A stretch of DNA of 32,000 nt from an uncultured Muribaculaceae bacterium (GCA_964523265.1 CAZFXQ010000003.1:1-32000); one strand, 5' to 3'; positions 8,614 to 32,000 are shown, counted from the stretch's first letter. A program made the numbers and translations. The notes: a model not told the origin generated them from the letters alone.

Positions 8614-8680
8614 AATTATCACCACCTAAACAAAATTATTATGCTTATTATTATTTATCTTAGCAAGTATAATTAAATAT

Positions 8681-9739
8681 TCATTTGTTTTTTACTAATT
8701 CTTTTATTATAATTTTGTTGCTTTCTATTACTTTTGTTGCCAATCTTAATATTAATTTTTCTAATAATGGTTTTGCACGTGCACATAAGGTTCTACTAGA
8801 TTTTCTTTTGCCATATTTAGGATAGTAAGCTAATAAGATTTCTTTTTCTTTATCACTAAATATTTCATCTATTGTTTCATCTACTAAATTTCTATCATAA
8901 TTATTTGTAACATCATAAATTGTATCGTTTGTCTTAAACATTTTGCTTGAATCAACAAACTTTGGATTATAATTCAATTCTTCTTTTAACTTGTTTTTAA
9001 ATTTTATAATTGTGCGTGAAACATGTGCTTGACTCATATTGCATATTTTTGCTATCTTTGTTTGTTCATACTCATCAATATAATATAATTTTATTGCTTG
9101 TTTCTTATCATCATTAAATTCATTTAATACTTTTTCAATAATCATTTTAATTTCAACAGATAAAATTTCATCTTTTGTTTCACTAATCATAGCTTTCAAA
9201 GAAACTGGCTTTTCATTATTAATTACCATATTTTCTAAACTTATAGTATTTAGACCCAACAATTTTTTATTAATATCATCAACTGAAATATTAAGTAAAT
9301 TTGATATGGTGTCTTCACTTATTGGTAATCCTTTATTTTTATAATATATCTCTGATATATAATTAATACTATTTTGAAGGTTTATTGCTGATCTTGAAGG
9401 CCTAATAATCTTCTTTTTTTCTCTTGAAAAAATTCTTATTTTTCCTTCAATAATTGGTATTGCATATGTCGAAAACGAAGTTCCGTAATTAGAATCATAA
9501 TTATTTATTGCTTCAATAAGACCCAGTGCACCTTCTTGAAATGCATCTTCATAATCTTCTTCTTTAACTAACGTATTTAAATTAATTTTTGATAATACAT
9601 ACTTAATAAGTTTTAAATTAGCCTTAAATATTTTTTCTTTAGCTTCCTTCGTTCCTTCTAAAAATAGTATTTTTATCTCTTCATTTGTAATCTGATTAAA
9701 CTCTTCTGACTTTATATCTTTTAGTATAAATCTATCCAT
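8681..9739 (-). CDS. Sigma-70-family (group-3-like) sigma factor paralog 2 with a ~90-aa C-terminal extension
   Basis: Region 2 reads DAFQEGALGLIEAINNYD...FSTYAIPIIEGKIRIF. The region 4 HTH reads QTKIAKICNMSQAHVSRTIIKFKNKL. The extension (nt 8714..8980) aligns with the paralogs. The start lies 4 nt after the stop of the upstream giant sigma gene. Confidence 0.85.
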   Translation of the reverse strand: MDRFILKDIKSEEFNQITNEEIKILFLEGTKEAKEKIFKANLKLIKYVLSKINLNTLVKEEDYEDAFQEGALGLIEAINNYDSNYGTSFSTYAIPIIEGKIRIFSREKKKIIRPSRSAINLQNSINYISEIYYKNKGLPISEDTISNLLNISVDDINKKLLGLNTISLENMVINNEKPVSLKAMISETKDEILSVEIKMIIEKVLNEFNDDKKQAIKLYYIDEYEQTKIAKICNMSQAHVSRTIIKFKNKLKEELNYNPKFVDSSKMFKTNDTIYDVTNNYDRNLVDETIDEIFSDKEKEILLAYYPKYGKRKSSRTLCARAKPLLEKLILRLATKVIESNKIIIKELVKNK

Positions 9740-9743
9740 ATTA

Positions 9744-12700
9744 CTATCTATTAACGTTTCTTTTATTTATCATCAGTTTTTTAGAAAGCTCACCAGTACT
9801 ATTTAATATATTTGATGCAAATTTAGTTATCATATCTAATCCACTATTTAAATATTTTGTAATTATATTAGAATCAACTTTAAACATTTCTGATAATTCT
9901 TCAATCGTATACATCTTATCATCAACATATCCTAAAGCTAATAATAACAAAACTTGAGTTTTACTATCTGTCAAATTATTAATTAATAATCTAACACTAT
10001 CTTTATTTTGTTTAAAGACTTCATAATGAAAATCATTATAACTTTTATTTGCTTTAGTCTTTTTATCAAAATCATCTTTGTCTACATAATATAAATTATC
10101 TTTATTAATAATTTGTTCTTCACTTTCGTTTTCTTCTGTTATTGAATTATTTTGCTTTCTAATTTCATCAATACTCATTGGTTTACTGCATTTGTTTTTT
10201 AATTCAAAATCCGGATATGCCATCATTATTTTTTTAGTAAAAGGTAAAGTAAATATTGAAATATAATCTAAATCAATTTTTTCACCACTAGGATTCATAT
10301 ATCCTATGTTTGGCCATTTAATTTGATAAACATCATAAAGTATTCTTACATCAGTTTTTTCAATATTTGAAATTAATTTATCTAATTCTTCTATTGTAAT
10401 ATCTTCATTAAAAACTGAATGCATATCATCTAAATCTAGCTCTTGTTTATGTTTAATGAAATGATCATTAATTTCTTCGCGTGTTAATGACACCCATTTT
10501 TCAAATCTTGGTACCTGCAGATAATATTTATAAGCCAAATCTTTTTCACCTAATTCATGAAAAAATAAACCTATTCTTCGTATATTATAACTACTGTTAT
10601 GTTCAATATCTTGAGCTACCATAAAATCAAATTCTTTAATAGCTTCATCTTTTTTACCAAGTAAATAAAGAGCCTTCCCTTCCAATGACATTTTCCTTAA
10701 AATATTAGGTGTAATCTTATTCCCTTCAATATTTTTAAGTTCTTCTAAACATTCTAAATAATTACCACTGTCGAAAAAGATTAAGGCCTTAGTATAAAAA
10801 GCATCATAGTCTTTTTCATTTTTATCAATCGATTCATTTAAAAGACTAAATGCCATGTCATCCTTGCCAAGAAAGTGATAACACAAGGCTATTTTACTTT
10901 TATGATAATTTTTTTTATAATCAACTTTCCCACACTCAGAAAAAGTCTTAAGAGCTTCTTCATATCTTTCTTGAATAATGTAATTTTCACCTAATTCACA
11001 TAAAACATTATAATCTGAATTATATTTTAAAGTTTCTTTATAATACTTTTCAGCAAGCTGTAATTTACCACGCTTTTGATATATTGAAGCTATATTATAA
11101 TTAGCACAATATAATAAATAATTATCTTGCGTCATATTTAATAACTTTTTATATATTTCTAGTGATTCCTTAAGTTGAAATGGTGTTCCATTTTGTAATT
11201 CTGCTGCTTGTTTAAATAAATTATTAATGTATGAATTTAATGATTCATTTTTAATATCAGTTTTCTTTTCTTCAAAATTTTCTATTTCTTTTTCGTCCGT
11301 TATTTCATAACATACTATTTCATCATTTTCAATATTAGTAAAATCATATCTACCATTTTCATCTTTTTTAACGCAATTATAAAATTTCTTAATATTAGTA
11401 TCTCTTACTAATATTTTTTCATCAATAATATTATTATCTTTATCTATCTCAGTAATTCTATAAACATAACACTTTTTTGTAATTGAACCTTTTTCATATA
11501 TATTACCAAAGAAAACATCAGCATTTGATAACTTACATTTTGAAACAGTTTTTGATACAACTAAAAATCTACTATTATTTAAAATATATTTTGTATTTAA
11601 GATTTCTTTATTATTATCTTTTATTAAATCATAAATTTCACCTATATCATTAATACACTTTTCTTTTTTTATTTCTTTTTTAGTAATAGTTATTTTTTTA
11701 TTTTCTAATTGTTTATTAGCTTCTTCATTTTTCTCTTCACTAATTTGTTTTAAATATTTTTTTATTTCTGATTGGCACATTGATATATAATTTTTTGTTG
11801 TGTTTACTGTTATATTTAACTTTAATGCAATTTCTTCGATTGTTAATTTATTATAGTAGTAATCTTTAAATGCTATTATTTGTTTTTCTGATAAATTACT
11901 AATAATTAAATCTAAGGCACACTCATCTAAACTATCTAGCATTTCTTTAAAATTTATACTTTTCGTTTTTTTATTTACATATTTATTTTCTTTTTTTAAT
12001 TTTAATTTTTTTTCACCATTAAGTATACCTTTAATTTGCTTTTTTATATTATAATTAGTTGTATACATACTACTTGATTTTATACCTGTTGATGCTGCAA
12101 TTTCATCAATTGACTTTTTTTCTTTACCATTTAAACCATAATAACACTCTATAATTAATTTGTTTTTACAAGATAATTCATCAATAGCTTTTAAAACTTC
12201 TTCTTTAGTATAACCTTCAAATTCATTAAAAAAATTATCTTTCTTATCTTGGTTTATTTTTGTTCCCTTCTGTAATTTTAGTGTCTTCTTACCACTTAAA
12301 ATATCAATCACAAATTTTTTTGTATTAACTGCTGCCTGATAAACATTAGAATAATTTAAATTAAGTACTTCTGCTATTTCCTTTATAGAAATTTGACTTT
12401 TTCCATTTACACCATATAAGTATTCCATAATTTCTTTCTTTTTTTGGGGTAAAACATTAATAATACTTAACACACTTTCCTTACTATATCCTACAAAATC
12501 ATCTTCAATGTTGTAATTATTTTTTCTTTTTGTTTTATTTTCTCTTTCCATATTTTCACCATTTTCTATCACTTTTAATGCCATTTTCTCAACTAATTTT
12601 TCTATCAAAATATATGCTTTCCATTTTATATTTTCACTTTGTATAGTTTTTTTTAATTCTTTTATTGATTTTGGATAAAAACAGAATAATATTTCCTTTT

Positions 12701-13601
12701 CATCATCTGTAAATATTTCATCTATCGTTTCATCTATCATTTTTTTATCATAAAAACTTATTTTATCGTATATTGTTTGTTTAACTCTTTTTATTTTGCT
12801 ATTTTCTTCTACATACATTGGATTATATTCCAACTCTTTTAATAATTCTCGTTTAAACCCTCTTAATATTCTACTTACTTGTGCCTGGCTTAAAGATAAC
12901 TTTTCTGCTAATTCTGTTTGCGTTATAAAACCTGTGTAATACTGTATTATCGCTTCTTTTCGTTCGTTTGGATATTTATTTAATACCTTTTCAACAACTA
13001 ACTTTGTTTCTACTAGTGACATATCATCATAATCATAACTAATTAAATTTTCTAATCCACATTTATTATCAGCACTCAAACTAGATGAGTTCATATTAAC
13101 ATCAAAACTTAAAATATCATTACTAGAAATTGCTTGCGCAATTTCACTTTCTGATGTATTAAGTAGCGTTGATAACATTTTTGTGCTAATTTGTTTCCCA
13201 TACTTTTTTTCATATGCATCAATTAATAATGCAACTCTATATTTTAAATATGTTGCTTTTCTTGATGGTTTTATTAAATAAGATTTATCTCTTAAATATC
13301 TTTGTATTTCACCTTTAATCATTGGAACAGCATAAGTTGAAAATTCCACATTATAATCTAAATTAAACTCTTTTATTGCCTTTAGAAGACCAACTAATGC
13401 TTCTTGAAACATATCTTCATAATTTTGATTAGTAATTTTTTGTGAAAATTCTCCTAATACATACTTAACAAGTGGAATATTACTTTTAAATATTTTTTCT
13501 TTTGCCTCTTTTGTTCCCTCTAAAAACAATTTTTTTATTTCTTCGCTTGAAATTGTTTGAAATTCTTCTGATTTAATATTTTGTAAGCTAAATGTCTTCA
13601 T
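9744..13601 (-). CDS. 1285-aa sigma-70-family fusion protein: sigma core, shared extension, 3 sigma-4-like HTH repeats, unknown domain, TPR array, terminal HTH
   Basis: Uninterrupted 3858-nt ORF in a very AT-rich genome. aa 1-255 form a complete sigma core (EALVGLLKAIKEFNLDYNVEFSTYAVPMIKGEIQRYLRD; HTH TQTELAEKLSLSQAQVSRILRGFKREL). An AGGTGA RBS precedes the ATG. Domain coordinates are given in the findings. Confidence 0.9.
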   Translation of the reverse strand: MKTFSLQNIKSEEFQTISSEEIKKLFLEGTKEAKEKIFKSNIPLVKYVLGEFSQKITNQNYEDMFQEALVGLLKAIKEFNLDYNVEFSTYAVPMIKGEIQRYLRDKSYLIKPSRKATYLKYRVALLIDAYEKKYGKQISTKMLSTLLNTSESEIAQAISSNDILSFDVNMNSSSLSADNKCGLENLISYDYDDMSLVETKLVVEKVLNKYPNERKEAIIQYYTGFITQTELAEKLSLSQAQVSRILRGFKRELLKELEYNPMYVEENSKIKRVKQTIYDKISFYDKKMIDETIDEIFTDDEKEILFCFYPKSIKELKKTIQSENIKWKAYILIEKLVEKMALKVIENGENMERENKTKRKNNYNIEDDFVGYSKESVLSIINVLPQKKKEIMEYLYGVNGKSQISIKEIAEVLNLNYSNVYQAAVNTKKFVIDILSGKKTLKLQKGTKINQDKKDNFFNEFEGYTKEEVLKAIDELSCKNKLIIECYYGLNGKEKKSIDEIAASTGIKSSSMYTTNYNIKKQIKGILNGEKKLKLKKENKYVNKKTKSINFKEMLDSLDECALDLIISNLSEKQIIAFKDYYYNKLTIEEIALKLNITVNTTKNYISMCQSEIKKYLKQISEEKNEEANKQLENKKITITKKEIKKEKCINDIGEIYDLIKDNNKEILNTKYILNNSRFLVVSKTVSKCKLSNADVFFGNIYEKGSITKKCYVYRITEIDKDNNIIDEKILVRDTNIKKFYNCVKKDENGRYDFTNIENDEIVCYEITDEKEIENFEEKKTDIKNESLNSYINNLFKQAAELQNGTPFQLKESLEIYKKLLNMTQDNYLLYCANYNIASIYQKRGKLQLAEKYYKETLKYNSDYNVLCELGENYIIQERYEEALKTFSECGKVDYKKNYHKSKIALCYHFLGKDDMAFSLLNESIDKNEKDYDAFYTKALIFFDSGNYLECLEELKNIEGNKITPNILRKMSLEGKALYLLGKKDEAIKEFDFMVAQDIEHNSSYNIRRIGLFFHELGEKDLAYKYYLQVPRFEKWVSLTREEINDHFIKHKQELDLDDMHSVFNEDITIEELDKLISNIEKTDVRILYDVYQIKWPNIGYMNPSGEKIDLDYISIFTLPFTKKIMMAYPDFELKNKCSKPMSIDEIRKQNNSITEENESEEQIINKDNLYYVDKDDFDKKTKANKSYNDFHYEVFKQNKDSVRLLINNLTDSKTQVLLLLALGYVDDKMYTIEELSEMFKVDSNIITKYLNSGLDMITKFASNILNSTGELSKKLMINKRNVNR

Positions 13602-22653: not shown

Positions 22654-22778
22654 AAAAAATCTCCTTTATCATTTTATATAATTATAACACAATTAACAGA
22701 GCATTTTCTTATTTTTTTAAATAAAAGAATAATAAATATGATATAATAAATAGGAAAAAGAGATAAAAAGGTGATAAA

Positions 22779-23483
22779 ATGATAAGTTTTATAATATGTG
22801 AAGATAACAAAGGAGCAACAGAGATATATAAAAGAATAATAAATAAAGCGTTGATAAAATATGACATAGAATATAAAATTTATACATTTGAAAAATATAA
22901 TGAGAAATTAAAAAAAATAATAGAAGAGCCACAAGAATTAAAAATATATATAATGGATCTTGCAATGCCAGTAAAAAGTGGTATAGAAATAACAAAGCAA
23001 ATAAGAAAACAAGATTGGGATAGTCAAGTAATAATACTAACAGCACACGAAGAATTAGAATTAAGAATGTTAAAACAAAAACTATTGATAATAGATTTTA
23101 TATCAAAATTTGAAGATTATGAGAAGAGATTAACAGAGACAATAAAATTAATAATAAAACAAAGAAAAAGTATGAATACAATAATAGTGAAATCAGAAAA
23201 GATAATTCACAAAATAAAACTAGAAGACATATTGTACATATATAAAGAAAATGGAAGTGCAAACACAAATATAGTAACCAAAACAAAAGAATATAAAGTA
23301 AGAGAAAGTTTAATTAAATTAGAACAAAAATTAGATAATAGATTCTGTAAAACACACAGAAGTTGTATAGTAAACAAAGATAAAATAAAAAAAATAAATT
23401 TTAAAGAAAAAGAAATAAGCATGGAAGGGAATAAAAAAGTAGATTATTTATCACGAAATTACAAGAAGAATCTGAAGGTGTAA
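22779..23483 (+). CDS. LytTR-family response regulator (AgrA-like)
   Basis: Receiver domain with the phospho-acceptor context IYIMDLAMP. The C-terminal LytTR DNA-binding domain reads LEDILYIYKENGSANTNIVTKTKEYKVRESLIKLEQKL...FCKTHRSCIVN. Confidence 0.88.
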   Translation: MISFIICEDNKGATEIYKRIINKALIKYDIEYKIYTFEKYNEKLKKIIEEPQELKIYIMDLAMPVKSGIEITKQIRKQDWDSQVIILTAHEELELRMLKQKLLIIDFISKFEDYEKRLTETIKLIIKQRKSMNTIIVKSEKIIHKIKLEDILYIYKENGSANTNIVTKTKEYKVRESLIKLEQKLDNRFCKTHRSCIVNKDKIKKINFKEKEISMEGNKKVDYLSRNYKKNLKV

Positions 23484-23485
23484 CA

Positions 23486-24802
23486 ATGGAAATAGAAAAA
23501 ATATTATATAGTATAATAGGAGGAATATTTCAAGGATTAGGGACAAGTATAATAATAAAACGCCAAATACCAGAAATAAGTACCAAAAGATTTATAATAA
23601 TAAACATAATATTAATGATATATGGATCAATATCAATTTTATATATAGATAATGAATTTAGATTTTTAAGTTTTTTGATGGTTGTAACAATAACAATATA
23701 TTTTATAGTAAAAATAAGAGATAAAAGAGCAATATTATATGCATTTATAACAGAAATAATAAATTCAATATCAGAAATAGTAATATCAATAGTATTGCTA
23801 TTAATAATAGGAATAGATTCAAAATTAATGATAACAGATTATAAAATCAATTTAATAGCAAATATAAGTATGTCAATGTTTGGGATCATACTAATAATGT
23901 TTAAAAAAACGAAAGAGATAGCAAAGAAGATAATAGGATTATTTGAAAAAAATAAAAAATTAATAAATTATTTTTATGTGTTTATAGTAGTATTGTATTT
24001 ATTGGTATTAAAAAATGGATTTGAGTTTTTAGTAAAAACAAATTACTATATAAATGTGTTATTTATACTAGGATTATTTGTTATTTTAGTAATGATGATA
24101 AGTAATGAGAGAAAAAAAGAAAGTTTAAAAGAGCAATATAAACAAATGTTAAGTTATGTAACCAAATATGAAAAAATAATAACAGAACAAGGCAAAGCAA
24201 ATCATGAATATAAAAATCAATTAATGGTAATAAGAGGATATGCTCAAATGAATAATATACCGAAGTTAACTGCATATTTAGATTCAATAATAAAGGATTA
24301 TAAGAAAACACAAAGTAGTTACTTAATAAAAGAATTAAATAAGTTTCCAGAAGGAGGAATAAAGGGATTATTATATTATAAGTTATCAATGATGGAAGAT
24401 GAAAAGATAAAATATATAATAGATGTTGAAAGTGGTATAAAAACAAAGTTAAAAGGATTAAAAGTAGAAGAATATAAAAACATAACAAAAATATTAGGCG
24501 TATTATTAGATAATGCAATAGAATCAAGTAAGAAATCAAAAAAGAAGAATGTAATAATAAACGTAGAAAAAAGTAAAAACGAAGTAATATTTAGTGTTTC
24601 AAACACGTACAAAGGAAAGATAAAAATAGAAAAGATAGGTACAGGATACACAAGTAAAGGAACAAAGCACGGATACGGACTTAAGTTAGTAAAAGACATA
24701 ATAGAAAACAATAAAGGATATGGTATGAATAATTATTTAGAAGATGATTATTATGTTTGTAAATTAAAAGTTAATATTAATAGGAAAACAAAAAGAAGTT
24801 AA
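23486..24802 (+). CDS. AgrC-like (HPK10-type) membrane histidine kinase
   Basis: About 200 aa polytopic N-terminus (6 or more TM helices), H-box NHEYKNQLMVI, N-box LLDNAIESS, G-box HGYGLKLV. It starts 3 nt after the regulator gene's stop codon. Confidence 0.85.
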   Translation: MEIEKILYSIIGGIFQGLGTSIIIKRQIPEISTKRFIIINIILMIYGSISILYIDNEFRFLSFLMVVTITIYFIVKIRDKRAILYAFITEIINSISEIVISIVLLLIIGIDSKLMITDYKINLIANISMSMFGIILIMFKKTKEIAKKIIGLFEKNKKLINYFYVFIVVLYLLVLKNGFEFLVKTNYYINVLFILGLFVILVMMISNERKKESLKEQYKQMLSYVTKYEKIITEQGKANHEYKNQLMVIRGYAQMNNIPKLTAYLDSIIKDYKKTQSSYLIKELNKFPEGGIKGLLYYKLSMMEDEKIKYIIDVESGIKTKLKGLKVEEYKNITKILGVLLDNAIESSKKSKKKNVIINVEKSKNEVIFSVSNTYKGKIKIEKIGTGYTSKGTKHGYGLKLVKDIIENNKGYGMNNYLEDDYYVCKLKVNINRKTKRS

Positions 24803-24821
24803 TCTATAATGATTAACTTCT
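24794..24821. terminator. Bidirectional hairpin between the convergent kinase and agrD-like genes
   Basis: Perfect 11-bp stem AGAAGTTAATC/GATTAACTTCT with loop TATAAT. It overlaps the kinase stop and is flanked by an A-run and a T-run. Confidence 0.7.
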
Positions 24822-24825
24822 CTTT

Positions 24826-24951
24826 TTATCTTTCTATCATTGATTTAGGCATTTGTGGTTCATCAATGAAAACAAATGCACATCCTGCTGTAGCAGCACT
24901 TGCTACTAAAGCCCCTAATGCTGAAACTACTGAAATAACTATAGCTTTCAT
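24826..24951 (-). CDS. agrD: AgrD-like autoinducing-peptide precursor (41 aa), not in the ORF track
   Basis: Manual translation gives MKAIVISVVSALGALVASAATAGCAFVFIDEPQMPKSMIER. A perfect AAGGAGG RBS lies 7 nt upstream, and the gene sits 36 nt downstream of agrB. The sequence has an amphipathic leader, a single Cys plus 4 hydrophobic residues, and an acidic proline-rich tail. Confidence 0.8.
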   Translation of the reverse strand: MKAIVISVVSALGALVASAATAGCAFVFIDEPQMPKSMIER

Positions 24952-24987: not shown

Positions 24988-25596
24988 TTAATTTGTGTTT
25001 AAACCATATGTTTTGTAATTATTATAAGGCATTTTAAAAGCCTTATATGTTAATGGCAATATTAATATACATTCTATTACAACACCTATTGTTAAACAAT
25101 TAATTATTAAGTTGTTTTTGATTATTAATGAAAAAACTAAATATATTAGTAAAACCATTATTGATAGAAGTTTATATTTTAATCTACGCTGTTTTTTTAT
25201 TAATGGTCGTTTTTCTGTATCTGCAGGTGCATAAATTAAAAATAATACTAGCATTGATATGTAAATAATAGTTATAATCAACTTTGGTATTATTAGAATG
25301 CTACATAAGTAAGCTCCAAGAATAAAAATCAATAAAGAAAAGGTAAGACAGTGCCAACTTTTTGATGCATGCATTCCAAATGCAAATAAACGAATAAAAT
25401 TATAAGTTAATAATAGTAAAATTAATTCCTTGAAGATATTAAATATAATTGCGACTAAAAATATTACAATAGCTTTAGTAATAGTTAAATATAAACCTTC
25501 AATACCATACATTATTTCATCTATTTTCTCTTTGCTATAATTCTTGTTTTTATTTGTAATTTCTTTTTTTATATATTTTAAAAAACGTTTTTTCAT
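24988..25596 (-). CDS. agrB: AgrB-family accessory gene regulator protein (AIP-processing membrane peptidase)
   Basis: 202 aa, polytopic. The conserved AgrB-type segment RLFAFGMHASKSWHC contains the catalytic-type His and Cys. It lies directly upstream of the agrD-like ORF. Confidence 0.85.
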   Translation of the reverse strand: MKKRFLKYIKKEITNKNKNYSKEKIDEIMYGIEGLYLTITKAIVIFLVAIIFNIFKELILLLLTYNFIRLFAFGMHASKSWHCLTFSLLIFILGAYLCSILIIPKLIITIIYISMLVLFLIYAPADTEKRPLIKKQRRLKYKLLSIMVLLIYLVFSLIIKNNLIINCLTIGVVIECILILPLTYKAFKMPYNNYKTYGLNTN

Positions 25597-25894: not shown

Positions 25895-26113
25895 ATGAAG
25901 TTAGGAAGAATCAAATGGTTTAATAACGAAAAAGGTTATGGCTTTATTGAATTAGAAAATAGCGAAGATATTTTTGTTCATTATTCTGCAATAAAACAAG
26001 ATGGTTATAAAACTCTTTCTGAAGGCCAAATAGTTGAATATGAGCTTATTAAAACCGAAAAAGGTTTACAAGCTATTAATGTAAAAGAAGTATCAAATGC
26101 TACTGTTTGTTAG
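25895..26113 (+). CDS. Cold-shock protein (CspA family)
   Basis: RNP1/RNP2 motifs [12 protein letters not shown] and DIFVHYSAI, 72 aa, with a GAGGTG RBS. Confidence 0.93.
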
Positions 26114-26127
26114 TAGCATTTATTTTT
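26095..26127 (+). terminator. Terminator overlapping the csp stop codon
   Basis: 10-bp stem AAATGCTACT/AGTAGCATTT followed by ATTTTT. Confidence 0.7.
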
Positions 26128-26162
26128 ATAATATGTTATAATTATGTCAAGGAGGATTTGAT

Positions 26163-26693
26163 ATGAAATATAATATTCGTGGTGAAAATACAGAAATAAC
26201 TTCATCAATAAGAAAATATATCGAAGAAAAAATAGGAAAGTTAGGCAAGTATTTTGAAGATTCTGATTTGTTAAATGTTAATGTTTTAATTAAAATACGT
26301 GGTAAAGAACAAAAAATTGAAATTACTATACCTGCTTCCCATTTTACATTAAGGAGCGAGGAGTCACATGAAGATTTATATGCCGCAATTGATCTTACAG
26401 TTGATAAATTAGAAAGACAAATTAGAAAAAATAAAACAAAATTAAATTCTAAAATAAAGAAAAATATAATTAGTAATTTTGAATTGGATTTAGAAGATAG
26501 TTTTGATTTTGATGATTCGAAAGTTTTAAAAAGAAAAAAATTAGATATGAAACCTATGGATGAAGAAGAAGCTATTCTTCAAATGAATATGTTAGGTCAT
26601 TCGTTCTTTGTTTTTAAAAATACTGATACTGATTCTGTTTGTGTTCTTTATATTAGAAAAGACGGTAATTATGGTATTATTGAAACAAAATAA
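26163..26693 (+). CDS. hpf: Ribosome hibernation promoting factor (long HPF)
   Basis: N-terminal sigma-54-modulation/RaiA domain (MKYNIRGENTEITSSIRKYIEEKIGKL) and the C-terminal dimerisation domain of long HPFs (MDEEEAILQMNMLGHSFFVFKN). It is in the conserved position upstream of secA. Confidence 0.9.
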   Translation: MKYNIRGENTEITSSIRKYIEEKIGKLGKYFEDSDLLNVNVLIKIRGKEQKIEITIPASHFTLRSEESHEDLYAAIDLTVDKLERQIRKNKTKLNSKIKKNIISNFELDLEDSFDFDDSKVLKRKKLDMKPMDEEEAILQMNMLGHSFFVFKNTDTDSVCVLYIRKDGNYGIIETK

Positions 26694-26703
26694 TAGTGTT
26701 ATT

Positions 26704-26743
26704 AGAAAATAATTAAATTATCTTTAATTATTTTCTTTTTTTT
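26704..26743 (+). terminator. Strong hairpin terminator or attenuator between hpf and secA
   Basis: Perfect 14-bp stem AGAAAATAATTAAA/TTTAATTATTTTCT followed by T7. An extended -10 (TGTTAAAAT) follows immediately, before secA. Confidence 0.75.
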
Positions 26744-26772
26744 GTTAAAATATTTATTAGGGAGATGATAAC

Positions 26773-29268
26773 ATGTTAGGAATATTCAAAAAAATATTTG
26801 ATCATGAATATAAAGAATTAAATAAATTCAAGGTAATAGCTGATAAAGTTATGGATTTAGATAATAAATATAGTAAACTATCTGATGATAAACTTAAAGC
26901 TATGACTGATAAACTAAAAAAAAGATTAAACAGCGGAGAAAGTATAGATGAGCTAATTCCAGATGCGTTTGCATTAGTTAGAGAATCTGCTTATAGAGTA
27001 ATAGGAGAGAAACCTTTTTATACACAGGTGTTGGGTGCACTTGCAATTCACTTTGGAAACATTTCTGAAATGAAAACAGGTGAGGGTAAAACCCTTACTT
27101 GTGTTATGCCTGCTTATTTAAATGCTTTAACTGGAAAAGGAGTTCATATTGTAACTGTAAACGAATATTTAGCAACTCGTGATGCTAATTGGATGGGTAA
27201 AATTTTTGAATTTTTAGGTATGAATGTTGCAGTAAATTTGAGAGAAATGTCTCCACAAGAAAAAAAAGAAGCATATCTTTGTGATATCTTATATTCAACA
27301 AATAACGAATTAGGATTCGACTACTTAAGAGATAACATGGTTGTAAAAAAAGAAAATAAGGTACAAAGACCACTTAATTTTGCTATCATAGATGAAGTTG
27401 ACTCTGTTTTAATAGATGAAGCTAGAACACCACTTATAATATCTGGTGGTTCTATGAAATCAAAAAATTTATATATTGATTCTGATAAATATGTTAAAAC
27501 TTTAAAAGAAAATGAAGATTATACAATTGATGAAAAAACGAAAGATATTACATTAACAGATGAAGGAACAACAAAAGCAGAAAAATTCTTTAGAATTTCT
27601 AATCTTTATGACATATCAAATTCTGCACTAGTTCATCATATTAATCAAGCTTTAAAGGCTAATTATACAATGAAAAATGATGTTGATTACGTTGTTCAAG
27701 ATGGAAAAGTAATTATAGTTGATCAATTTACAGGAAGACTAATGCCGGGAAGAGCATTTTCTGAAGGATTACATCAAGCTATTGAAGCTAAAGAAAATGT
27801 TAAAGTAGAAGAGGAAACAAAAACACTTGCAACGATTACATTTCAAAATTACTTTAGAATGTATGAAAAACTAGCAGGTATGACTGGTACAGCAAAAACA
27901 GAAGAAGAAGAATTTAGAAACATATATAATATGTTTGTTATTCAAATACCAACAAATTTACCTGTAATAAGAGTAGATGCAGCAGATCTAATATATTCTA
28001 CAAAAAATGAAAAATACAAAGCTATTATTTCTGAAATAAAAGAAAGACACAAAACAGGACAACCAGTGCTGGTAGGTACTATTGCAATTGAAACAAGTGA
28101 AATTATTTCTAGTTTATTAAAAAAAGAAGGATTAAAACACGAAATTTTAAACGCTAAAAATCATGCTAGAGAGGCTGAAATTATTGCTAAAGCTGGAGAA
28201 AAAGGATCAATTACCATTGCAACTAATATGGCTGGGCGTGGTACTGATATTAAACTTGGTAAAGGAGTTAAAGAACTTGGTGGTCTATGTGTTATTGGTA
28301 CTGAAAGACATGAATCAAGACGTATTGATAATCAGTTAAGAGGTCGTTCTGGACGTCAAGGTGATCCTGGATATAGTCAGTTTTATGTTTCATTTGAAGA
28401 TGATTTAATGGTTAGATTTGGAACAGATAGATTTAAGGGGATACTTGAGATGGCTGGACTAGACAGCGAAAGAAACATGAGAAGTAAAACTATTACACGT
28501 TCCGTTGAAACTGCTCAAAAAAGGGTAGAAGGTAATAACTTTGACGCCCGCAAACACTTACTACAATATGATGATGTTATGGGAAAACACCGTGAAATAA
28601 TGTATGCTAAAAGAAATGAAATATTAGATAATGATGATATACATGAATTAATAATAAATATAATTAAAGATCATATTGATTTATTAGTAAAAAGACATAT
28701 TAATGAACATAATGTAATCTCTGAAAAAGATTGTAATGAAATAATTGAATATGTAAACGAAAATTTGTTAAAGCATGACAATTTAAAACTTTCCGAAATA
28801 TTAAATAAAGATATTGACAATACAAAAGATTTAATAATTAATAAAGTCATTAAAGAATATGAAGATAAAATTAGTATGTTACCTAATGAAATCAAAAATG
28901 ATTTTGAAAAGGCAATAAGCTTACAAGTTATTGATAATTATTGGATGGAGCACATAAATACTATGGATCATTTAAGGGAAGGTGTCTCTTTAAGAGGATA
29001 CGCTAATGAAGATCCATTACAAGCATACATTAGAGAAGGTTTTCAATTGTTTGATAACATGATGGATTCTATTAATAAAGATATAACTTTATATTTATTA
29101 AAAGCAGAAATAAGACAAAATTTAAGCGCTAAAGAAGTCAAAGGAACCACTAATACAGGAAGTGAAAAAACTGTTAAAAATACTCCAAAAAAAGTTAAAA
29201 AAGTTGGTAGAAATGATTTGTGTCCATGTGGGTCAGGGAAGAAATATAAACAATGTTGCGGAAAATAA
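26773..29268 (+). CDS. secA: Preprotein translocase ATPase SecA
   Basis: 831 aa. Walker A MKTGEGKT, DEAD-like IIDEVDSVLIDEARTPLIISG, TNMAGRGTDIKLG, and a C-terminal SEC-C zinc motif CPCGSGKKYKQCCGK. Confidence 0.97.
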   Translation: MLGIFKKIFDHEYKELNKFKVIADKVMDLDNKYSKLSDDKLKAMTDKLKKRLNSGESIDELIPDAFALVRESAYRVIGEKPFYTQVLGALAIHFGNISEMKTGEGKTLTCVMPAYLNALTGKGVHIVTVNEYLATRDANWMGKIFEFLGMNVAVNLREMSPQEKKEAYLCDILYSTNNELGFDYLRDNMVVKKENKVQRPLNFAIIDEVDSVLIDEARTPLIISGGSMKSKNLYIDSDKYVKTLKENEDYTIDEKTKDITLTDEGTTKAEKFFRISNLYDISNSALVHHINQALKANYTMKNDVDYVVQDGKVIIVDQFTGRLMPGRAFSEGLHQAIEAKENVKVEEETKTLATITFQNYFRMYEKLAGMTGTAKTEEEEFRNIYNMFVIQIPTNLPVIRVDAADLIYSTKNEKYKAIISEIKERHKTGQPVLVGTIAIETSEIISSLLKKEGLKHEILNAKNHAREAEIIAKAGEKGSITIATNMAGRGTDIKLGKGVKELGGLCVIGTERHESRRIDNQLRGRSGRQGDPGYSQFYVSFEDDLMVRFGTDRFKGILEMAGLDSERNMRSKTITRSVETAQKRVEGNNFDARKHLLQYDDVMGKHREIMYAKRNEILDNDDIHELIINIIKDHIDLLVKRHINEHNVISEKDCNEIIEYVNENLLKHDNLKLSEILNKDIDNTKDLIINKVIKEYEDKISMLPNEIKNDFEKAISLQVIDNYWMEHINTMDHLREGVSLRGYANEDPLQAYIREGFQLFDNMMDSINKDITLYLLKAEIRQNLSAKEVKGTTNTGSEKTVKNTPKKVKKVGRNDLCPCGSGKKYKQCCGK

Positions 29269-29325
29269 GGAAAAATAAGCAATTATAAAGTTAAAAAATA
29301 ACAATTTGACATCCATTTGTCATCC
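29224..29325 (+). repeat. Direct repeat copy A: secA 3' end (SEC-C codons), about 40 bp downstream, and the GACATCC-ATTT-GTCATCC motif
   Basis: 29224..29308 aligns with 31916..32000 at high identity (a few third-position and intergenic mismatches). The CATCCATTTGTCATCC part (29310..29325) recurs at 30824..30839. Confidence 0.85.
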
Positions 29326-29348
29326 TAAACAAAAAATGGATGACAAAT
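29315..29348 (+). promoter_or_regulatory. 11-bp inverted repeat (ATTTGTCATCC-N12-GGATGACAAAT) between secA and the GNAT gene; possible terminator or operator
   Basis: Perfect dyad seen directly in the sequence. It sits 20 nt before the GNAT start codon and overlaps the repeated GTCATCC motif. Confidence 0.4.
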
Positions 29349-29368
29349 TTGTGTTGGAGGATTATATA

Positions 29369-29818
29369 ATGAACGCAGAATTAAAGAAAGTAAATTTTGA
29401 TAATACTGATTTTATAAAATTATGTCTGTTTTTAGAGCAAGAGCACATTGATATAGTAAAAGAGCAAAGAAGTCCTAAAGGTAATTGCTTAAATAATTCA
29501 GATAAATTTACCACTGTGTTTATTCAATATATTGATAATAAACCTGTTGGATGTTTAGCAATGAAGGACTGCATAAATAAAACTATTGAAGTTGGAAGAT
29601 TATATGTACTGCCTGAATATAGGCAAAATAAAATAGCAACAAAATTATTTCAAAAGGTTGAAGAATATGCTAAGAAATTAGGTGCAAATAGAATAATTTT
29701 AGATACTTATAAGAGATTTACTTCAGCGGTGGCATTATATAAAAAATTAGGTTTTTATGAAATAGAAAATTATTTAGATTATTCTCCGTATTCAATATGT
29801 ATGGAAAAGAAAATATAA
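29369..29818 (+). CDS. GNAT-family N-acetyltransferase
   Basis: Motif A region LYVLPEYRQNKIATKLFQKVEEYAKKLGANRIILDT. The preferred start is ATG 29369, behind a GGAGG RBS. The track ORF starts at a TTG at 29306, inside the repeat. Confidence 0.8.
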   Translation: MNAELKKVNFDNTDFIKLCLFLEQEHIDIVKEQRSPKGNCLNNSDKFTTVFIQYIDNKPVGCLAMKDCINKTIEVGRLYVLPEYRQNKIATKLFQKVEEYAKKLGANRIILDTYKRFTSAVALYKKLGFYEIENYLDYSPYSICMEKKI

Positions 29819-29865
29819 TTAAAATCATTATAAAGTTTAAAAAAGCAAAGGAGGGATTTTGGAAA

Positions 29866-30756
29866 ATGAAAAATGAATTAGTGACAACAGAATTAAATGT
29901 AATTAATAATAAGATAGGCATTATTAGAGTTGGTAATGTAAATTATATATCAATAACTGATTTGGCACGATATAAAGATAAAGATAGAACTGATTATATA
30001 ATTCAAAACTGGATGAGAAATACAAATAGTATATTATTCTTGGGCACTTGGGAATCTATTCATAATGATAATTTTAATTCCATCGAATTCGATGGGTTTA
30101 AAAATGAGTCCGGTACAAATGCTTTTGTTATGACTCCTAAAAAATGGATCAAAACTACAAATGCTATTGGAATAATATCTAGACAAGGTAGATATAATAG
30201 TGGCACATTTGCACATCCTGATATAGCATTTGAATTTGCTAGTTGGCTTTCACCTGAATTCAAATTATATTTAATAAAAGAGTTCGAAAGATTAAAAACT
30301 AATGAAGCATATCAATATAAAATTGAATGGAGTGCAACTCGTCTTTTATCAAAAGTCAATTATGTTGTTCATACCGATGCTATAAAAGAATGTATAGTGC
30401 CTAATTTAACAGAAAAGCAAAAACAGCATATCTATTCTGATGAAGCAGATATTATTAATGTAGCCTTATTTGGTATGACAGCAAAAGAGTGGAGAAAACA
30501 AAATCCTGAATTAGCTAAAAATGGTAATATTAGAGACTATACAGATTTATTACATTTAGTAATCTTAAATAATCTCCAAAACACAAGTGCTGAATTAATA
30601 GAAGATGGTCTATCACAAAGAGATAGATTAATAAAATTAAATGAATCAGCAAAACGGCAAATGAAATCTTTGCAACATAGTAAAAGTATGAAAGATTTAG
30701 AATTGTTACAAAATGAGATTAAAGAGAATAGTTTAATTGCAATAGATAGTAAATGA
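29866..30756 (+). CDS. KilA-N domain-containing protein (phage/mobile-element-associated DNA-binding protein)
   Basis: The KilA-N-type core reads NYISITDLARYKD...QNWMRN...GTFAHPDIAFEFASWLSPEFKLYLIKEF. The preferred start is ATG 29866, with an AAGGAGGG RBS. Confidence 0.75.
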   Translation: MKNELVTTELNVINNKIGIIRVGNVNYISITDLARYKDKDRTDYIIQNWMRNTNSILFLGTWESIHNDNFNSIEFDGFKNESGTNAFVMTPKKWIKTTNAIGIISRQGRYNSGTFAHPDIAFEFASWLSPEFKLYLIKEFERLKTNEAYQYKIEWSATRLLSKVNYVVHTDAIKECIVPNLTEKQKQHIYSDEADIINVALFGMTAKEWRKQNPELAKNGNIRDYTDLLHLVILNNLQNTSAELIEDGLSQRDRLIKLNESAKRQMKSLQHSKSMKDLELLQNEIKENSLIAIDSK

Positions 30757-30813
30757 TTCATACAATTTGTAAATACAATATAATTTTATATAATATTTAT
30801 GGTAAATAGAATG

Positions 30814-30839
30814 TTGACAATGTCATCCATTTGTCATCC
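30814..30839 (+). repeat. Second copy of the TGTCATCC-ATT-TGTCATCC motif
   Basis: TTGACAATGTCATCCATTTGTCATCC shares 16 identical nt with 29310..29325. Confidence 0.7.
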
Positions 30840-30845
30840 GATGAT

Positions 30846-30958
30846 AAATACTATATGTACTATAAATACCACAAATACTATATATACCAAATCTGCGTTG
30901 TCTAATAAAATAAGCAAATACTATAAGTACCATAAATACTATAAATAACGATAATACT
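30846..30958 (+). repeat. Iteron-like cluster: four perfect AAATACTATA 10-mers plus degenerate copies
   Basis: Perfect copies start at 30846, 30873, 30916 and 30934. Related ACTATAAATACC and ATAATACT variants lie between and after them. Confidence 0.8.
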
Positions 30959-31015
30959 GAGTGTCATTGTACATGTGGTAGTGGACGCAAGTATAAAATG
31001 TGCCATGGCAAATAA
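30914..31015 (+). pseudogene. Orphan SEC-C zinc-motif remnant with no usable start codon
   Basis: This frame reads ANTISTINTINNDNTECHCTCGSGRKYKMCHGK-stop and is preceded by an in-frame TAA. The CxCGSGxKYKxCxGK pattern matches the SEC-C motif at the secA C-terminus but is divergent at the nucleotide level. Confidence 0.6.
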
Positions 31016-31058
31016 GCCTGCAAGCCCATATAAATAAAGGGATTGTGAGCTTTTTCTT

Positions 31059-31114
31059 TGCTAAAAAATTGCGAAAAATCATAAAAAATTCACTTTAGAT
31101 ACCTTTTAGATACC
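31059..31114 (+). repeat. Direct repeat R2a (contains tandem TAGATACC)
   Basis: TGCTAAAAAATTGCGAAAAATCATAAAAAATTCACTTTAGATACCTTTTAGATACC aligns with 31754..31810. Confidence 0.8.
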
Positions 31115-31171
31115 TTTTTCCGGTATTTTTAAAAGATAATAAATATGGTATAATTAGCTTAGGAGATTATT

Positions 31172-31747
31172 ATGATAGATTTTTACATACACCAAATTGG
31201 AAATATTCAAAATGAAAAGACTTATGAAAGATTGATAAGTATATTAAAAAGTCAAACTATAAGTTCTAGAGATTTTTTAGAGAAGCAAGGAATAAAATTT
31301 GAATACGATAATGCATCATTCAAATTGGATATACCAGAAAATAAAAAGTGGATGTACTATGAAGAAGATATTCATAAAGATAGAGTATCGTTATCTGATC
31401 CACAAAATAGATTTATAAAAAAAGCCATTGAAAAGAAAGACCATCAAATGTTTACTTGCTTTGATTACGATTATATTGCTTTTGCTGTTTCTAGAGATGT
31501 TCCATTAGTACCACAAGAAGAAACTCATGGACTAGCTTTAGGCGAAGTACAAGTTAAAGATAAAGTGGATTCCCAATACATTGTTGGTTTAATATTACCA
31601 ATTACTGAAGAGCAAATGCAAGATGAAAAAAATATGCAAATAGTTGAAGCGTTTGCAAGTCTATGTGAAAAAAATGGATTTCCATTAGATATTTATAATT
31701 ACGAAGGTGTTTTATTAGATAAAAAGAAACAAATCAAATCAATATAA
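31172..31747 (+). CDS. Hypothetical 191-aa soluble protein (no recognisable motifs)
   Basis: Clean ORF with a GGAGA RBS, flanked by the R2a/R2b direct repeats. I recognise no TM segments or catalytic motifs. Confidence 0.6.
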   Translation: MIDFYIHQIGNIQNEKTYERLISILKSQTISSRDFLEKQGIKFEYDNASFKLDIPENKKWMYYEEDIHKDRVSLSDPQNRFIKKAIEKKDHQMFTCFDYDYIAFAVSRDVPLVPQEETHGLALGEVQVKDKVDSQYIVGLILPITEEQMQDEKNMQIVEAFASLCEKNGFPLDIYNYEGVLLDKKKQIKSI

Positions 31748-31753
31748 TGTTAT

Positions 31754-31810
31754 TGCTAAAATTTTTCGAAAAATCGTTAAAAACATATTTTAGATACCTT
31801 TTTAGATACC
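31754..31810 (+). repeat. Direct repeat R2b
   Basis: TGCTAAAATTTTTCGAAAAATCGTTAAAAACATATTTTAGATACCTTTTTAGATACC is the partner of R2a. Confidence 0.8.
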
Positions 31811-31915
31811 CTGGGAGTAAATTCTCGGGTGCTGTAGGAAGTCCCCAAGTGCATTCAATAGCTCAAAAGAGCCACAAAATGCTCTTAAGAACTCCCAAAA
31901 ACCCAAAATTACAAG

Positions 31916-32000
31916 CCATGTGGAAGCGGGAAGAAGTACAAACAATGTTGCGGAAAATAAGGAAAAACAAGCAATTATAGATTAAAAAAATAACAAATTG
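31916..32000 (+). repeat. Direct repeat copy C: duplicated secA 3' end (PCGSGKKYKQCCGK-stop at 31916..31960) plus downstream sequence, running off the window
   Basis: This frame reads ELPKTQNYKPCGSGKKYKQCCGK-stop after an in-frame TAA, so it is a non-functional fragment. It aligns colinearly with 29224..29308, offset by 2692 bp. Confidence 0.85.

Follow-up and report, generated by a model that had tools for sequence, protein, structure and literature searches.

What is the origin of the secA ends that recur downstream of secA at this locus, and of the small gene units that lie between them? A first-pass annotation of the window (the whole 32,000-nt stretch of DNA analysed) had read the secA 3′ end as an integration hotspot that carries one or two small cargo units, with any recombinase lying past position 32000. 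We examined the repeats, extended the array beyond the window, and compared it with related loci.

Copies of the secA end and the units between them

Window positions 29224–29308 and 31916–32000 form an 85-nt direct repeat of 87% identity that reaches the window edge. Its offset of 2692 is the top ungapped direct repeat in 28500–32000, with a score of 52 (+1/−2 scoring); in first-order Markov simulations (n = 100) the corresponding score was 14.2 ± 1.3 with a maximum of 19, and the repeat is thus far above chance expectation. It is a single pair inside a larger array of SEC-C core copies, seven of which (45 nt each) are found in the window together with metagenome contig L001. This contig is 100% identical to window 30393–32000 (the last 1608 nt) and adds 8.4 kb, so that the array past 32000 is known through metagenome contigs whose overlap with the window is identical, rather than through the record of the window itself. 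The features of the window are collected in Table 1.

Most of what the first-pass annotation had noticed here holds. The 85-nt repeat is real and continues beyond 32000, similarity to window 29224–29350 extending for 128 nt at 88% in L001. The second copy lies outside any gene, with a stop in frame upstream (...KCS*ELPKTQNYKPCGSGKKYKQCCGK*, where * is a stop), and the third, more diverged SEC-C copy is located at 30971–31015. A second GTCATCC motif is present as a pair at 30822–30839 that matches 29308–29325, the iteron-like short repeats are 9-nt repeats at 30844–30956, and the further direct-repeat pair lies at 31058–31107 and 31753–31802; the GNAT and KilA-N genes are both backed by Pfam. 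The non-coding part of the 85-nt repeat had been misread: it is not duplicated DNA from downstream of secA but the homologous left arm of the related units 1 and 3.

Table 1. Features of the secA array within the window.
Feature	Position	Strand	Basis
secA (831 aa), intact, ending in SEC-C zinc-finger motif CPCGSGKKYKQCCGK	26773..29268	+	ORF list; Pfam domains of identical protein from other contigs
Core copy 1, putative att core at secA-proximal junction; last 14 codons and stop of functional secA	29224..29268	+	nhmmer core model 42.9 bits; direct repeat
Unit 1 left arm (type A): GACATCC 29308-29314, GTCATCC 29319-29325, inverted GGATGAC 29338-29344; hairpin formed	29269..29368	+	sequence; fold -16 kcal/mol, z -3.75
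Unit 1 cargo: GNAT acetyltransferase, 149 aa	29369..29818	+	Pfam Acetyltransf_1, E 1.8e-18
Unit 1 second gene: KilA-N domain protein, 296 aa	29866..30756	+	Pfam KilA-N, E 3e-18; PHROG 2657 'transcriptional regulator'
Unit 1 right arm (type A): GTCATCC pair 30822-30828, 30833-30839; then ~10 9-nt repeats (AAATACTAT-like) 30844-30956	30757..30970	+	repeat search
Core copy 2, SEC-C mimic (CTCGSGRKYKMCHGK*), outside any gene	30971..31015	+	translation; nhmmer core model 38.4 bits
Hairpin after core 2, then T-run; terminator-like	31014..31052	+	fold -10.7 kcal/mol
Unit 2 left arm (type B): TAGATACC pair 31096-31103, 31107-31114; extended -10 box TATGGTATAAT 31144-31154; ribosome-binding site	31053..31171	+	repeats; alignment
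Unit 2 cargo: 191-aa protein	31172..31747	+	ORF list
Unit 2 right arm (type B): TAGATACC pair 31791-31798, 31803-31810; conserved spacer 31811-31915	31748..31915	+	repeat search
Core copy 3, second copy of the first-pass annotation; in-frame stop upstream	31916..31960	+	repeat search; translation; nhmmer core model 46.1 bits
Unit 3 left arm start (type A)	31961..32000	+	continues in L001: GTCATCC / ATCATCC / GGATGAC, then NUDIX-HD and RhuM genes

Seven units, all co-oriented, follow secA in the window and L001. Both arms are retained in the six complete units, and the seventh, truncated unit has a left arm only and lacks a distal core. All share one layout, in which a core copy is followed by a hairpin, two short repeats in tandem and a promoter-like −10 box; one or two genes come next, then the repeat pair once more and finally a 38-nt SEC-C mimic. 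Most units have a −10 box of their own. The repeat motif is the same within a unit and differs between units, five different arm motifs being found in the window's array. Units 1 and 3 have right arms that are 83% identical over 437 nt, and the slot occupied by the KilA-N gene in unit 1 is taken by RhuM in unit 3. Other type B cassettes can be aligned with the left arm of unit 2, as can the arm next to the integrase in prophages L445 and L446; a right arm of the unit 2 type precedes the right-hand core of the tailed prophage L099. Its 191-aa protein had no Pfam or PHROG match, and the cassette recurs at 95% identity in another sample (L004) beside a different downstream neighbour. The post-core hairpin is weak in unit 2 and strong in unit 5 (−20 kcal/mol) and unit 6 (−18 kcal/mol), where z is about −5. 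By inspection, its stem after core 2 may be half of a core-type inverted repeat with core TTGCG.

An independent assembly (L433) contains the same array at 99.9% identity, and in all four contigs that carry the exact window secA the GNAT unit adjoins it. Pfam and PHROG revealed no recombinase domain (Phage_integrase or other) in the units of the window or L001, where several cargo ORFs lack any match. Neither the 29 kb that precede the array nor its distal end, where an inverted copy of the agr-like kinase gene lies, contained a recombinase. The expectation of integrase-less units thus stands; extension past 32000 brought five further units and further core copies (seven in all), but no recombinase up to the inverted kinase copy. 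For the window's own organism, no excised circle, empty site or integrase turned up.

Similar arrays are found at 43 other loci (42 metagenome, one MAG), and at least two co-oriented cores occur in 44 of 128 scanned sequences, the window's own composite included. Across loci, the units have a median of 1466 nt; of their 120 ORFs, 113 run in the direction of secA, and only 3 of 118 scanned unit ORFs match Phage_integrase. Cargo includes GNAT, NUDIX, RhuM and methyltransferase genes. Left and right motifs within units agree in 26 of 37 cases, against 11.7 ± 2.0 expected (10000 permutations, none reaching 26), and agreement between neighbouring units across a core is only 4/15. The motif pairs belong to units, as expected of attP arms.

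Integrase-bearing elements at the same site

In relatives, prophages and islands with tyrosine integrases are inserted at exactly this core, which bears out the inferred hotspot, and the units resemble these elements in layout. Locus L147 has, in order, the secA end, a cassette, a core, a hairpin, three copies of TAGATAAG, an integrase, cI and cro. A 40-kb viral contig (L445 plus L099) carries the secA end, a hairpin, a TAGATACC pair and an integrase at its first end, and tail, holin and endolysin genes, a TAGATACC pair and a core at the other. A 9.2-kb island (L342) has TAGAACC pairs at each end. The integrases of L342, L356, L320, L385 and P0001–P0016 contain Arm-DNA-bind_4 and Phage_integrase domains (PF14657, PF00589). 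Because the same cores and motifs flank integrase-bearing prophages and islands, it appears that the SEC-C codons constitute an att core and that the repeat pairs are arm-type sites.

Integrases that share a motif group together in two multi-member clades (92–100% for TAGATACC, 90–100% for TAGATACG; 50–59% between clades). The suggested specificity of arm motif for integrase draws mainly on close relatives within these clades, because the similarity between the two integrases of TAGAACC type (57%) does not exceed their similarity to other clades. The core is used by two unrelated integrase families. In MAG L040, GTCATCC repeats lie between secA and a truncated family-2 integrase, and intact second-family integrases of 402–413 aa directly follow secA in relatives that share the window's gene order (RR-HK-agrD-agrB-csp-hpf-secA). 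The right arms of these intact elements share the layout of the unit 1 right arm; type A arms appear to pair with the second family. The closest integrases in deposited phage genomes, those of Clostridium phages phi3626, phiMMP02 and phiCD24-1, are 29–34% identical. A poly-A tract in one integrase family may be an on/off switch for integrase expression.

Arrays vary between strains. In one species the site is seen with and without an extra element, the kind of strain comparison that the first-pass annotation had proposed: in L466 a 5.1-kb element with an integrase separates secA from the element that lies directly against it in L464, and all three junctions share an identical block of 38 nt.

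Cassette movement and its explanation

Cassettes have also been transferred between hosts, with cargo 85–93% identical where secA DNA is 72–79% identical, and identical cassettes recur in different arrays. A 3278-nt integrase-less cassette (99.6%) adjoins secA in L326 and stands third or later among the units of L332, with identity stopping inside the cores on both sides. This cleanest pair places the exchange point at core nt 36–39, ~7–9 nt before the stop-codon end; other pairs give bounds of ≥30 and ≥12, and L466/L464 yields only the 38-nt identity block. If this tentative mapping is right, the SEC-C copies that had been taken for secA remnants are real copies but would be mostly secA mimics carried by the elements, not displaced pieces of secA. 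In the L004 copy of unit 2, similarity is lost at about core nt 12 and the left arm is mosaic; homologous exchange between cassettes of the same type is therefore also indicated.

We consider it probable that the locus reflects a secA att core, tandem accretion, and integrase-less cassettes flanked by att sites. The last 45 nt of secA (SEC-C codons and stop), together with the DNA that follows, would serve arm-binding tyrosine integrases as their attachment core; temperate phages and small islands carry these enzymes in a clade of uncultured, AT-rich gut Bacilli. The attP of an element would comprise a SEC-C codon mimic, a few terminal nt by which the secA stop is restored, a hairpin and, on both sides, 7–9-nt motifs in tandem pairs, which would serve as arm-type sites and vary in sequence with integrase clade. 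Integration would leave secA intact with a second core downstream, and the next element would enter the secA-proximal core and push the older one outward. On this reading, the outcome is what the window shows: two complete units, unit 1 (GNAT and KilA-N, GTCATCC arms) and unit 2 (191-aa gene, TAGATACC arms), with unit 3 starting at the edge.

The cassettes would derive from integrase-bearing elements through loss of integrase and backbone, and the chances seem evenly balanced that they can still be excised and inserted in trans by a cognate integrase from a visiting phage or island. Only tentatively do we suggest a working, integron-like gene capture in gut Bacillota, in which self-promoted cassettes with a full attP are routinely excised as circles and re-inserted at secA by a passing phage or island integrase of matching arm type. 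If so, cassettes that benefit the host would form a pool, and phage integrases would recombine them as a common and interchangeable machinery. Gut Bacillota are not known to have native chromosomal integrons.

Some cassettes may be plain relics, because integrase decay clearly occurs (L040 truncated, L385 multiply frameshifted). It is possible, though we doubt it, that the units are dead prophage or island remnants at secA that retain a useful gene, with no site-specific movement and with variation generated by deletion and by homologous recombination through cores and hairpins. Most units retain both arms with matching motifs, and the left ends of type B cassettes form one shared module in which the spacing of −10 box and repeats is similar, neither of which fits this reading easily; the module is unexpected from independent random deletions. 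Truncated or frameshifted integrases beside secA in L040, L385 and L320 speak for it, as do the early core break and mosaic arm of the L004 copy and the occurrence of the same MetRS-like cargo between different arm types, and no circular contigs were found among 120 metagenome loci. The integrase-less cassette shared by two arrays, with breaks within cores, also argues against dead remnants.

Capture and shuffling of all secA cassettes by one chromosomal integrase elsewhere in the genome, as by IntI at attI, is improbable. Like chromosomal integrons, the arrays consist of small co-oriented cassettes of one or two genes with a recombination site at each boundary, are rich in acetyltransferases (GNAT) and defence or toxin genes, and contain no integrase of their own. 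However, five arm motifs occur in one array and follow different integrase clades on phages and islands, implying several integrase specificities, and neither the 29 kb upstream nor the far end holds an integrase. The array is headed by secA without an adjacent intI, attI or Pc. Its boundaries appear to be double-stranded att cores (a 45-nt coding-sequence mimic) with arms, and no folded, single-stranded attC-like sites replace the core; promoter-like extended −10 boxes distinguish the cassettes from the mostly promoterless integron cassettes.

Duplication of a local segment comprising the secA 3′ end and the DNA downstream of it, the intervening genes being unrelated, is very unlikely: although the 85-nt repeat covers coding and non-coding DNA, this reading is contradicted by seven cores with unit-specific arms, by motif agreement within units, by non-coding similarity only among units of the same arm type, and by the same ends with other cargo in other species. 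That the core copies are independent small SEC-C domain protein genes, as one gene caller's 41-aa SEC-C ORF at such a copy in L460 would have it, is hardly credible, being contradicted by the ORF list and translations: a stop lies in frame 9 codons before core copy 3, core copy 2 is preceded in frame only by a translated 9-nt repeat tract, and both lie outside any ORF of ≥30 aa in the core reading frame.

Comparison with known systems

CIMEs and tandem accretion have been described for the ICESt1/ICESt3 family at the fda 3′ end of Streptococcus thermophilus (PMC5704250). As in CIMEs, the secA units occupy the 3′ end of a housekeeping gene, lack integration and transfer genes (no recombinase domain in window or L001 units), and keep putative attL and attR, every complete unit lying between two SEC-C cores with matching arm motifs. 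They are stacked in tandem with integrase-bearing relatives, prophages and islands that share core and arm motifs, and for both, the presumed source is a complete element that decayed. Unlike CIMEs, which in the original family are excised or transferred with or by an ICE, they target secA, and their candidate helpers are temperate phages and small islands, with no conjugation genes noted. At a median of 1.5 kb and 1–2 genes the units are far shorter, and many have a common left-end module bearing a −10 box. Runs of up to seven units occur, with five or more arm specificities and two unrelated integrase families on one core. The process is thus of a known kind; the site and form seem to be undescribed.

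Lambda-type recombination relies on heterobivalent tyrosine integrases that have arm-type and core-type sites. The features shared with it are integrases with N-terminal arm-DNA-binding and catalytic domains, and repeated arm motifs that flank the core, the same motif lying by the integrase and at the far end in L342 and the L445/L099 prophage. The core TTGCG and the hairpin-stem CGCAA can be read, by inspection, as an inverted repeat. Unlike the lambda case, arm-binding integrases are found in related loci and not in the window, and binding and the overlap region are predicted here from sequence.

Tycheposon islands have been reported at tRNA genes in Prochlorococcus (bioRxiv 10.1101/2020.12.28.424599). 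There, as here, repeated integration at one site drives older elements outward, and partial target copies and degraded elements are scattered. The secA arrays differ in having a protein-coding target, a Bacillota host, and regular integrase-less units with both arms.

SCCmec and pseudo-SCC composites of staphylococci lie at the 3′ end of rlmH (orfX). They resemble the secA arrays in having cassettes stacked at a conserved gene's 3′ end, with direct repeats that include its last codons and with some members lacking a recombinase, but SCC elements have large serine recombinases (Ccr), no arm-type sites, and cassettes of many kilobases.

A cassette array behind secA

The first-pass annotation had described a duplication of the secA 3′ end and read the site as an integration hotspot; the feature is real, and that reading was right in outline. 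The last 14 codons of secA, its stop codon and ~40 nt of 3′ sequence (29224–29308) recur at 31916–32000 as an 85-nt repeat with 87% identity. The repeat scores 52 (+1/−2 scoring), compared with 14.2 ± 1.3 and a maximum of 19 in simulations that preserved the dinucleotide composition. The second copy lies outside any gene and has an in-frame stop upstream. A third, more divergent SEC-C copy is present at 30971–31015, and the remaining repeats that had been named (a second GTCATCC pair, iteron-like repeats and a direct-repeat pair) are all real. The proposed colinear duplication of coding and non-coding sequence stands for the conserved core only: the non-coding part belongs to the left arms of units 1 and 3, which are both of type A and are homologous there. 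The motif is unit-specific, and both of these units carry GTCATCC; the repeat is thus a composite of core and arms. An Rfam scan of 26000–32000 and a tRNA scan of the whole window returned no match, so the repeats are neither a catalogued RNA nor an att site of tRNA type.

Other metagenome contigs also carry the gene for the 191-aa protein of this region. Among them, L001 (L-numbers denote metagenome or MAG loci compared with the window) is 100% identical to window positions 30393–32000 and extends 8.4 kb further; L433, assembled independently, spans this sequence with 99.9% identity. The composite of window and L001 holds seven 45-nt SEC-C cores, which are copies of the terminal secA codons and stop, and seven units, every one on the secA strand. 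A recombinase had been expected beyond position 32000, if one existed. None was recognisable in the units of the L001 continuation or in any of the seven units, several cargo ORFs of which have no Pfam or PHROG match, and the 29 kb upstream of the array contain ordinary chromosomal genes and no recombinase. The array ends 10 nt past its last gene, where it abuts the terminator hairpin belonging to an inverted second copy of the agr-like kinase gene. This join is real, because a 99.4%-identical second inverted copy of the regulator-kinase pair accounts for it; misassembly at the reversed kinase join in L001 was ruled out by its presence in independent assemblies (L432/L001, L433 and L435).

All units have a common plan in which core, hairpin with T-run, motif pair, extended −10 box and ribosome-binding site precede the gene or genes, and a repeat of the motif pair, a spacer and the next core follow. 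Motifs are 7–9 nt each and stand in tandem, spaced by about one helical turn. Hairpins, assessed by folding, are strong in units 5 and 6 and weaker in the others. Folding took the place of a simple promoter/terminator scan, which found no terminators, the loops here being larger than its limit, and which was uninformative for promoter-like sites (26 versus 20.6 expected in this 26% GC DNA). The arm motif differs from unit to unit, with five motifs in the seven-unit array. Left and right motifs agree inside a unit in 26 of 37 cases, compared with 11.7 ± 2.0 by permutation, and between neighbouring units across a core in 4 of 15; units are therefore bounded by cores. Judged by sequence, the motif pairs appear to behave as two arms of one attP. 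Cassettes with type B arms have one common module at the left end, in which repeats and −10 box are similarly spaced, and since independent random deletions would not give such a module, this suggests a lineage that swaps cargo.

Between the motif triplet and the core of the type A right arm, the window carries about ten 9-nt repeats (AAATACTAT-like), and similar repeats occupy the same invariant position in the right arms of L320, L456, L460 and L466. They may be further protein-binding sites, with an integrase, an excisionase or a unit-borne KilA-N or RhuM protein as candidate ligands.

Features of the window, the array and related secA loci
Feature	Sequence	Position (strand)	Content
secA	window	26773-29268	831 aa; window ends with secA and start of array
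Unit 1	composite		GNAT + KilA-N; GTCATCC (type A)
Unit 2	composite		191-aa gene; TAGATACC (type B)
Unit 3	composite		NUDIX-HD + RhuM; GTCATCC (type A)
Unit 4	composite		Ser hydrolase + 151-aa gene; TAGATACC (type B)
Unit 5	composite		460-aa gene; TAGATAAG
Unit 6	composite		150-aa + 272-aa genes; TCTACAC
Unit 7	composite		GNAT-YoaP; TAGAACC
9-nt repeats	window	30844-30956	type A right arm
Family 1 integrase	L147		TAGATAAG repeats, then cI and cro
Family 1 integrase	L445, L446, L448		TAGATACC
Family 1 integrase	L441, L444		TAGATACG
Family 1 integrase	L342		9.2-kb island, TAGAACC at both ends
Family 2 integrase, split	L320	10744-11978 (-)	
Family 2 integrase, split	L385	7573-8684	
Family 2 integrase, split	L464/L465	8465-9687	
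Family 2 integrase, split	L466	2992-4220; 8466-9687	
Family 2 integrase, intact	L456	8001-9242	
secA, other lineage	L464/L465/L466	4310-7066	918 aa
MetRS-like gene	L320	6877-8508 (-)	GTTTGCA-type arms
MetRS-like gene	L342	2182-3816 (-)	TAGATAAG-type arms
Element cargo	L342	5889-9703	DpnII restriction-modification system + OLD-family nuclease
Element cargo	L320	9236-10642	SMODS + SLATT pair (CBASS-like)
Element cargo	L456	11309-12606	MqsR-like toxin with SocA/Panacea antitoxin
Regulator-kinase copy	window	22677-24819	inverted
Regulator-kinase copy	L001	9989-11355	inverted; far end of array; also in L432, L433, L435, L437
AgrD-like precursor ORF	window	24826-24951 (-)	41 aa; agr-like quorum-sensing locus
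AgrB	window	24988-25596 (-)	agr-like quorum-sensing locus
Sigma-70-like paralogues	window	7534-13601 (-)	three, adjacent; 363, 352, 1285 aa

Integrases and insertion at the core

Integrases of two families are found at the secA core. Family 1 proteins (~375 aa, Arm-DNA-bind_4 and Phage_integrase domains) are encoded on the strand opposite secA, directly after core, hairpin and motif pair. L445 and L099 are the two ends of one 40-kb viral contig, with secA, core, hairpin, TAGATACC and integrase at the first and tail, holin, endolysin, accessory genes, TAGATACC and core at the second. Motif-only scans of viral contigs for repeat pairs gave mostly chance matches, only L099 and L147 being relevant. 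Same-motif integrases are 90–100% identical in the two multi-member clades, and identity between clades is 50–59%. Family 2 integrases (about 402–413 aa) lie on the secA strand, and intact copies occur one gene after secA in relatives with the window's gene order (RR-HK-agrD-agrB-csp-hpf-secA), whose right arms have the type A layout of motif triplet, 9-nt repeats and core. In the MAG L040, secA is followed by GTCATCC repeats and a truncated family 2 integrase, which ties the window's type A arms to this family. Both families show at most 34% identity to integrases of deposited phage genomes.

Several family 2 integrases are split at a poly-A tract, GAATT(A7 or A8)CAATATAGG, into N-terminal (170–175 aa) and C-terminal (228–230 aa) ORFs. 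An A9 tract would restore the frame, and the intact L456 gene has one in a slightly different context; tract length varies between assemblies of one locus, and the index of the protein collection lists the 228-aa C-terminal ORF in 408 blocks. A likelier reading than simple decay is that phase variation or transcriptional slippage controls the integrase. Genetic code 4 is not the cause, since the split is a frameshift at the poly-A tract and secA and other genes are intact under code 11. In L464, L465 and L466, such elements follow the secA of a different lineage, very widespread in the gut ('Clostidia bacterium' in one source), and use of the secA core therefore extends beyond the window's clade.

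L464 and L466 represent one species, with flanks 99.2–99.97% identical, and differ by an additional 5.1-kb integrase-bearing element that, in L466, separates secA from the resident element. All three junctions, the unoccupied one in L464 and attL and attR in L466, contain an identical block of 38 nt. An integrase-less cassette of 3278 nt (99.6% identical) adjoins secA in L326 and stands in third place or further out in L332; on the left its similarity begins at core nt 37, and on the right it stops at nt 38. Two further pairs give lower bounds compatible with this candidate crossover position. Cargo genes are 85–93% identical between hosts whose secA DNA is 72–79% identical.

Repeated integrase-mediated insertion at the core would best explain the array, with the newest element supplying the last nucleotides of secA and the terminator. 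We infer that cassettes derive from integrase-bearing elements via loss of integrase and backbone; in prophages, accessory genes adjoin the right arm, mostly in cassette orientation. The chances appear even, from these comparisons, that cassettes are still moved in trans. The main rival sees the units as relics in a graveyard, which homologous recombination has reshuffled, and decayed integrases do occur. Homologous exchange between like cassettes also takes place, as L004 carries a 95%-identical copy of window unit 2 with a different downstream neighbour, in which similarity is lost at about core nt 12 and the left arm is a mosaic. No circular contigs were found among the metagenome loci tested.

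Spread, cargo and relation to known systems

The closest genomes are uncultured gut Bacilli or 'Tenericutes' MAGs (secA 62–70% identical in amino acids). The nearest, L008, has a small array of its own, including one cassette with ends homologous to unit 5 and different cargo; secA loci of more distant genomes have a single core. A metagenome scan for core end and hairpin matched at least 120 loci, and metagenomes from human gut and rumen commonly contain arrays. With a core model, at least 44 of 128 sequences scanned, the window composite included, proved to have two or more co-oriented cores. Among the matches listed, 69 units have a median length of 1466 nt and 113 of 120 ORFs oriented as secA; only 3 of 118 ORFs scanned match Phage_integrase, and the cargo is led by GNAT acetyltransferases, followed by RhuM, NUDIX/HD, methyltransferase, MetRS-like, PvuRts1I/SRA and KilA-N genes. 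Array cargo also includes defence genes (restriction and CBASS-like), toxin-antitoxin pairs and additional tRNA synthetases, and the element cargo of L342, L320 and L456 in the table serves defence or addiction. The MetRS-like genes of L320 and L342 (543–544 aa; ~90% identical over 2084 nt) sit in cassettes with different arm motifs, so cargo passes from one cassette framework to another; a mobile, supernumerary methionyl-tRNA synthetase could confer resistance.

The process at secA matches tandem accretion and CIMEs, integrase-less cis-mobilizable elements as defined from streptococcal ICEs (PMC5704250), and the array resembles the stacked remnants of tycheposon islands (bioRxiv 10.1101/2020.12.28.424599). 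It differs in its target and phage-type helpers, in its very small, regular, self-promoted cassettes (promoter-like −10 boxes), in the number of arm specificities per array, and in the use of a single core by two integrase families. Nor is it an integron, because intI, attI and attC are all absent and the cassettes carry −10 boxes. In the literature searched, we came across no description of secA as an att site and nothing relevant on integron-like cassette arrays in Firmicutes. It appears that the process is a known one, and that the secA site and the cassette form would be new.

secA is essential and nearly universal, and its SEC-C codons are a highly conserved landing pad that would allow elements to move between fairly distant hosts. 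If integrase-less cassettes are still mobilised, genes would flow in uncultured gut Bacilli by a route that integrase-keyed element finders miss, and the site would be a natural example of several integrase specificities on one attB. For annotation, the array accounts for the SEC-C 'fragments' and short SEC-C ORFs that are annotated behind secA, and it may be the reason that, among the closest MAG contigs, two stop at secA.

Other features of the window

secA and the array lie on a ~17 kb segment between inverted LytTR response regulator/histidine kinase pairs that are 99.4% identical, and both orientations of the segment are present in rumen metagenomes. In the window and L437 the alr-side copy connects to agrD; in L432 and L433 it connects to the array end. 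In L435 it is the MreB-side copy that meets the array end. The segment looks like an invertible one that flips by homologous recombination. In the agr-like locus, agrD and agrB are directed towards the kinase gene rather than running parallel to it, an arrangement common to L456 and L460. Further upstream, the 1285-aa sigma-70-like paralogue has TPR repeats and several HTH matches besides sigma regions 2 and 4, which makes its architecture unusual among sigma factors.
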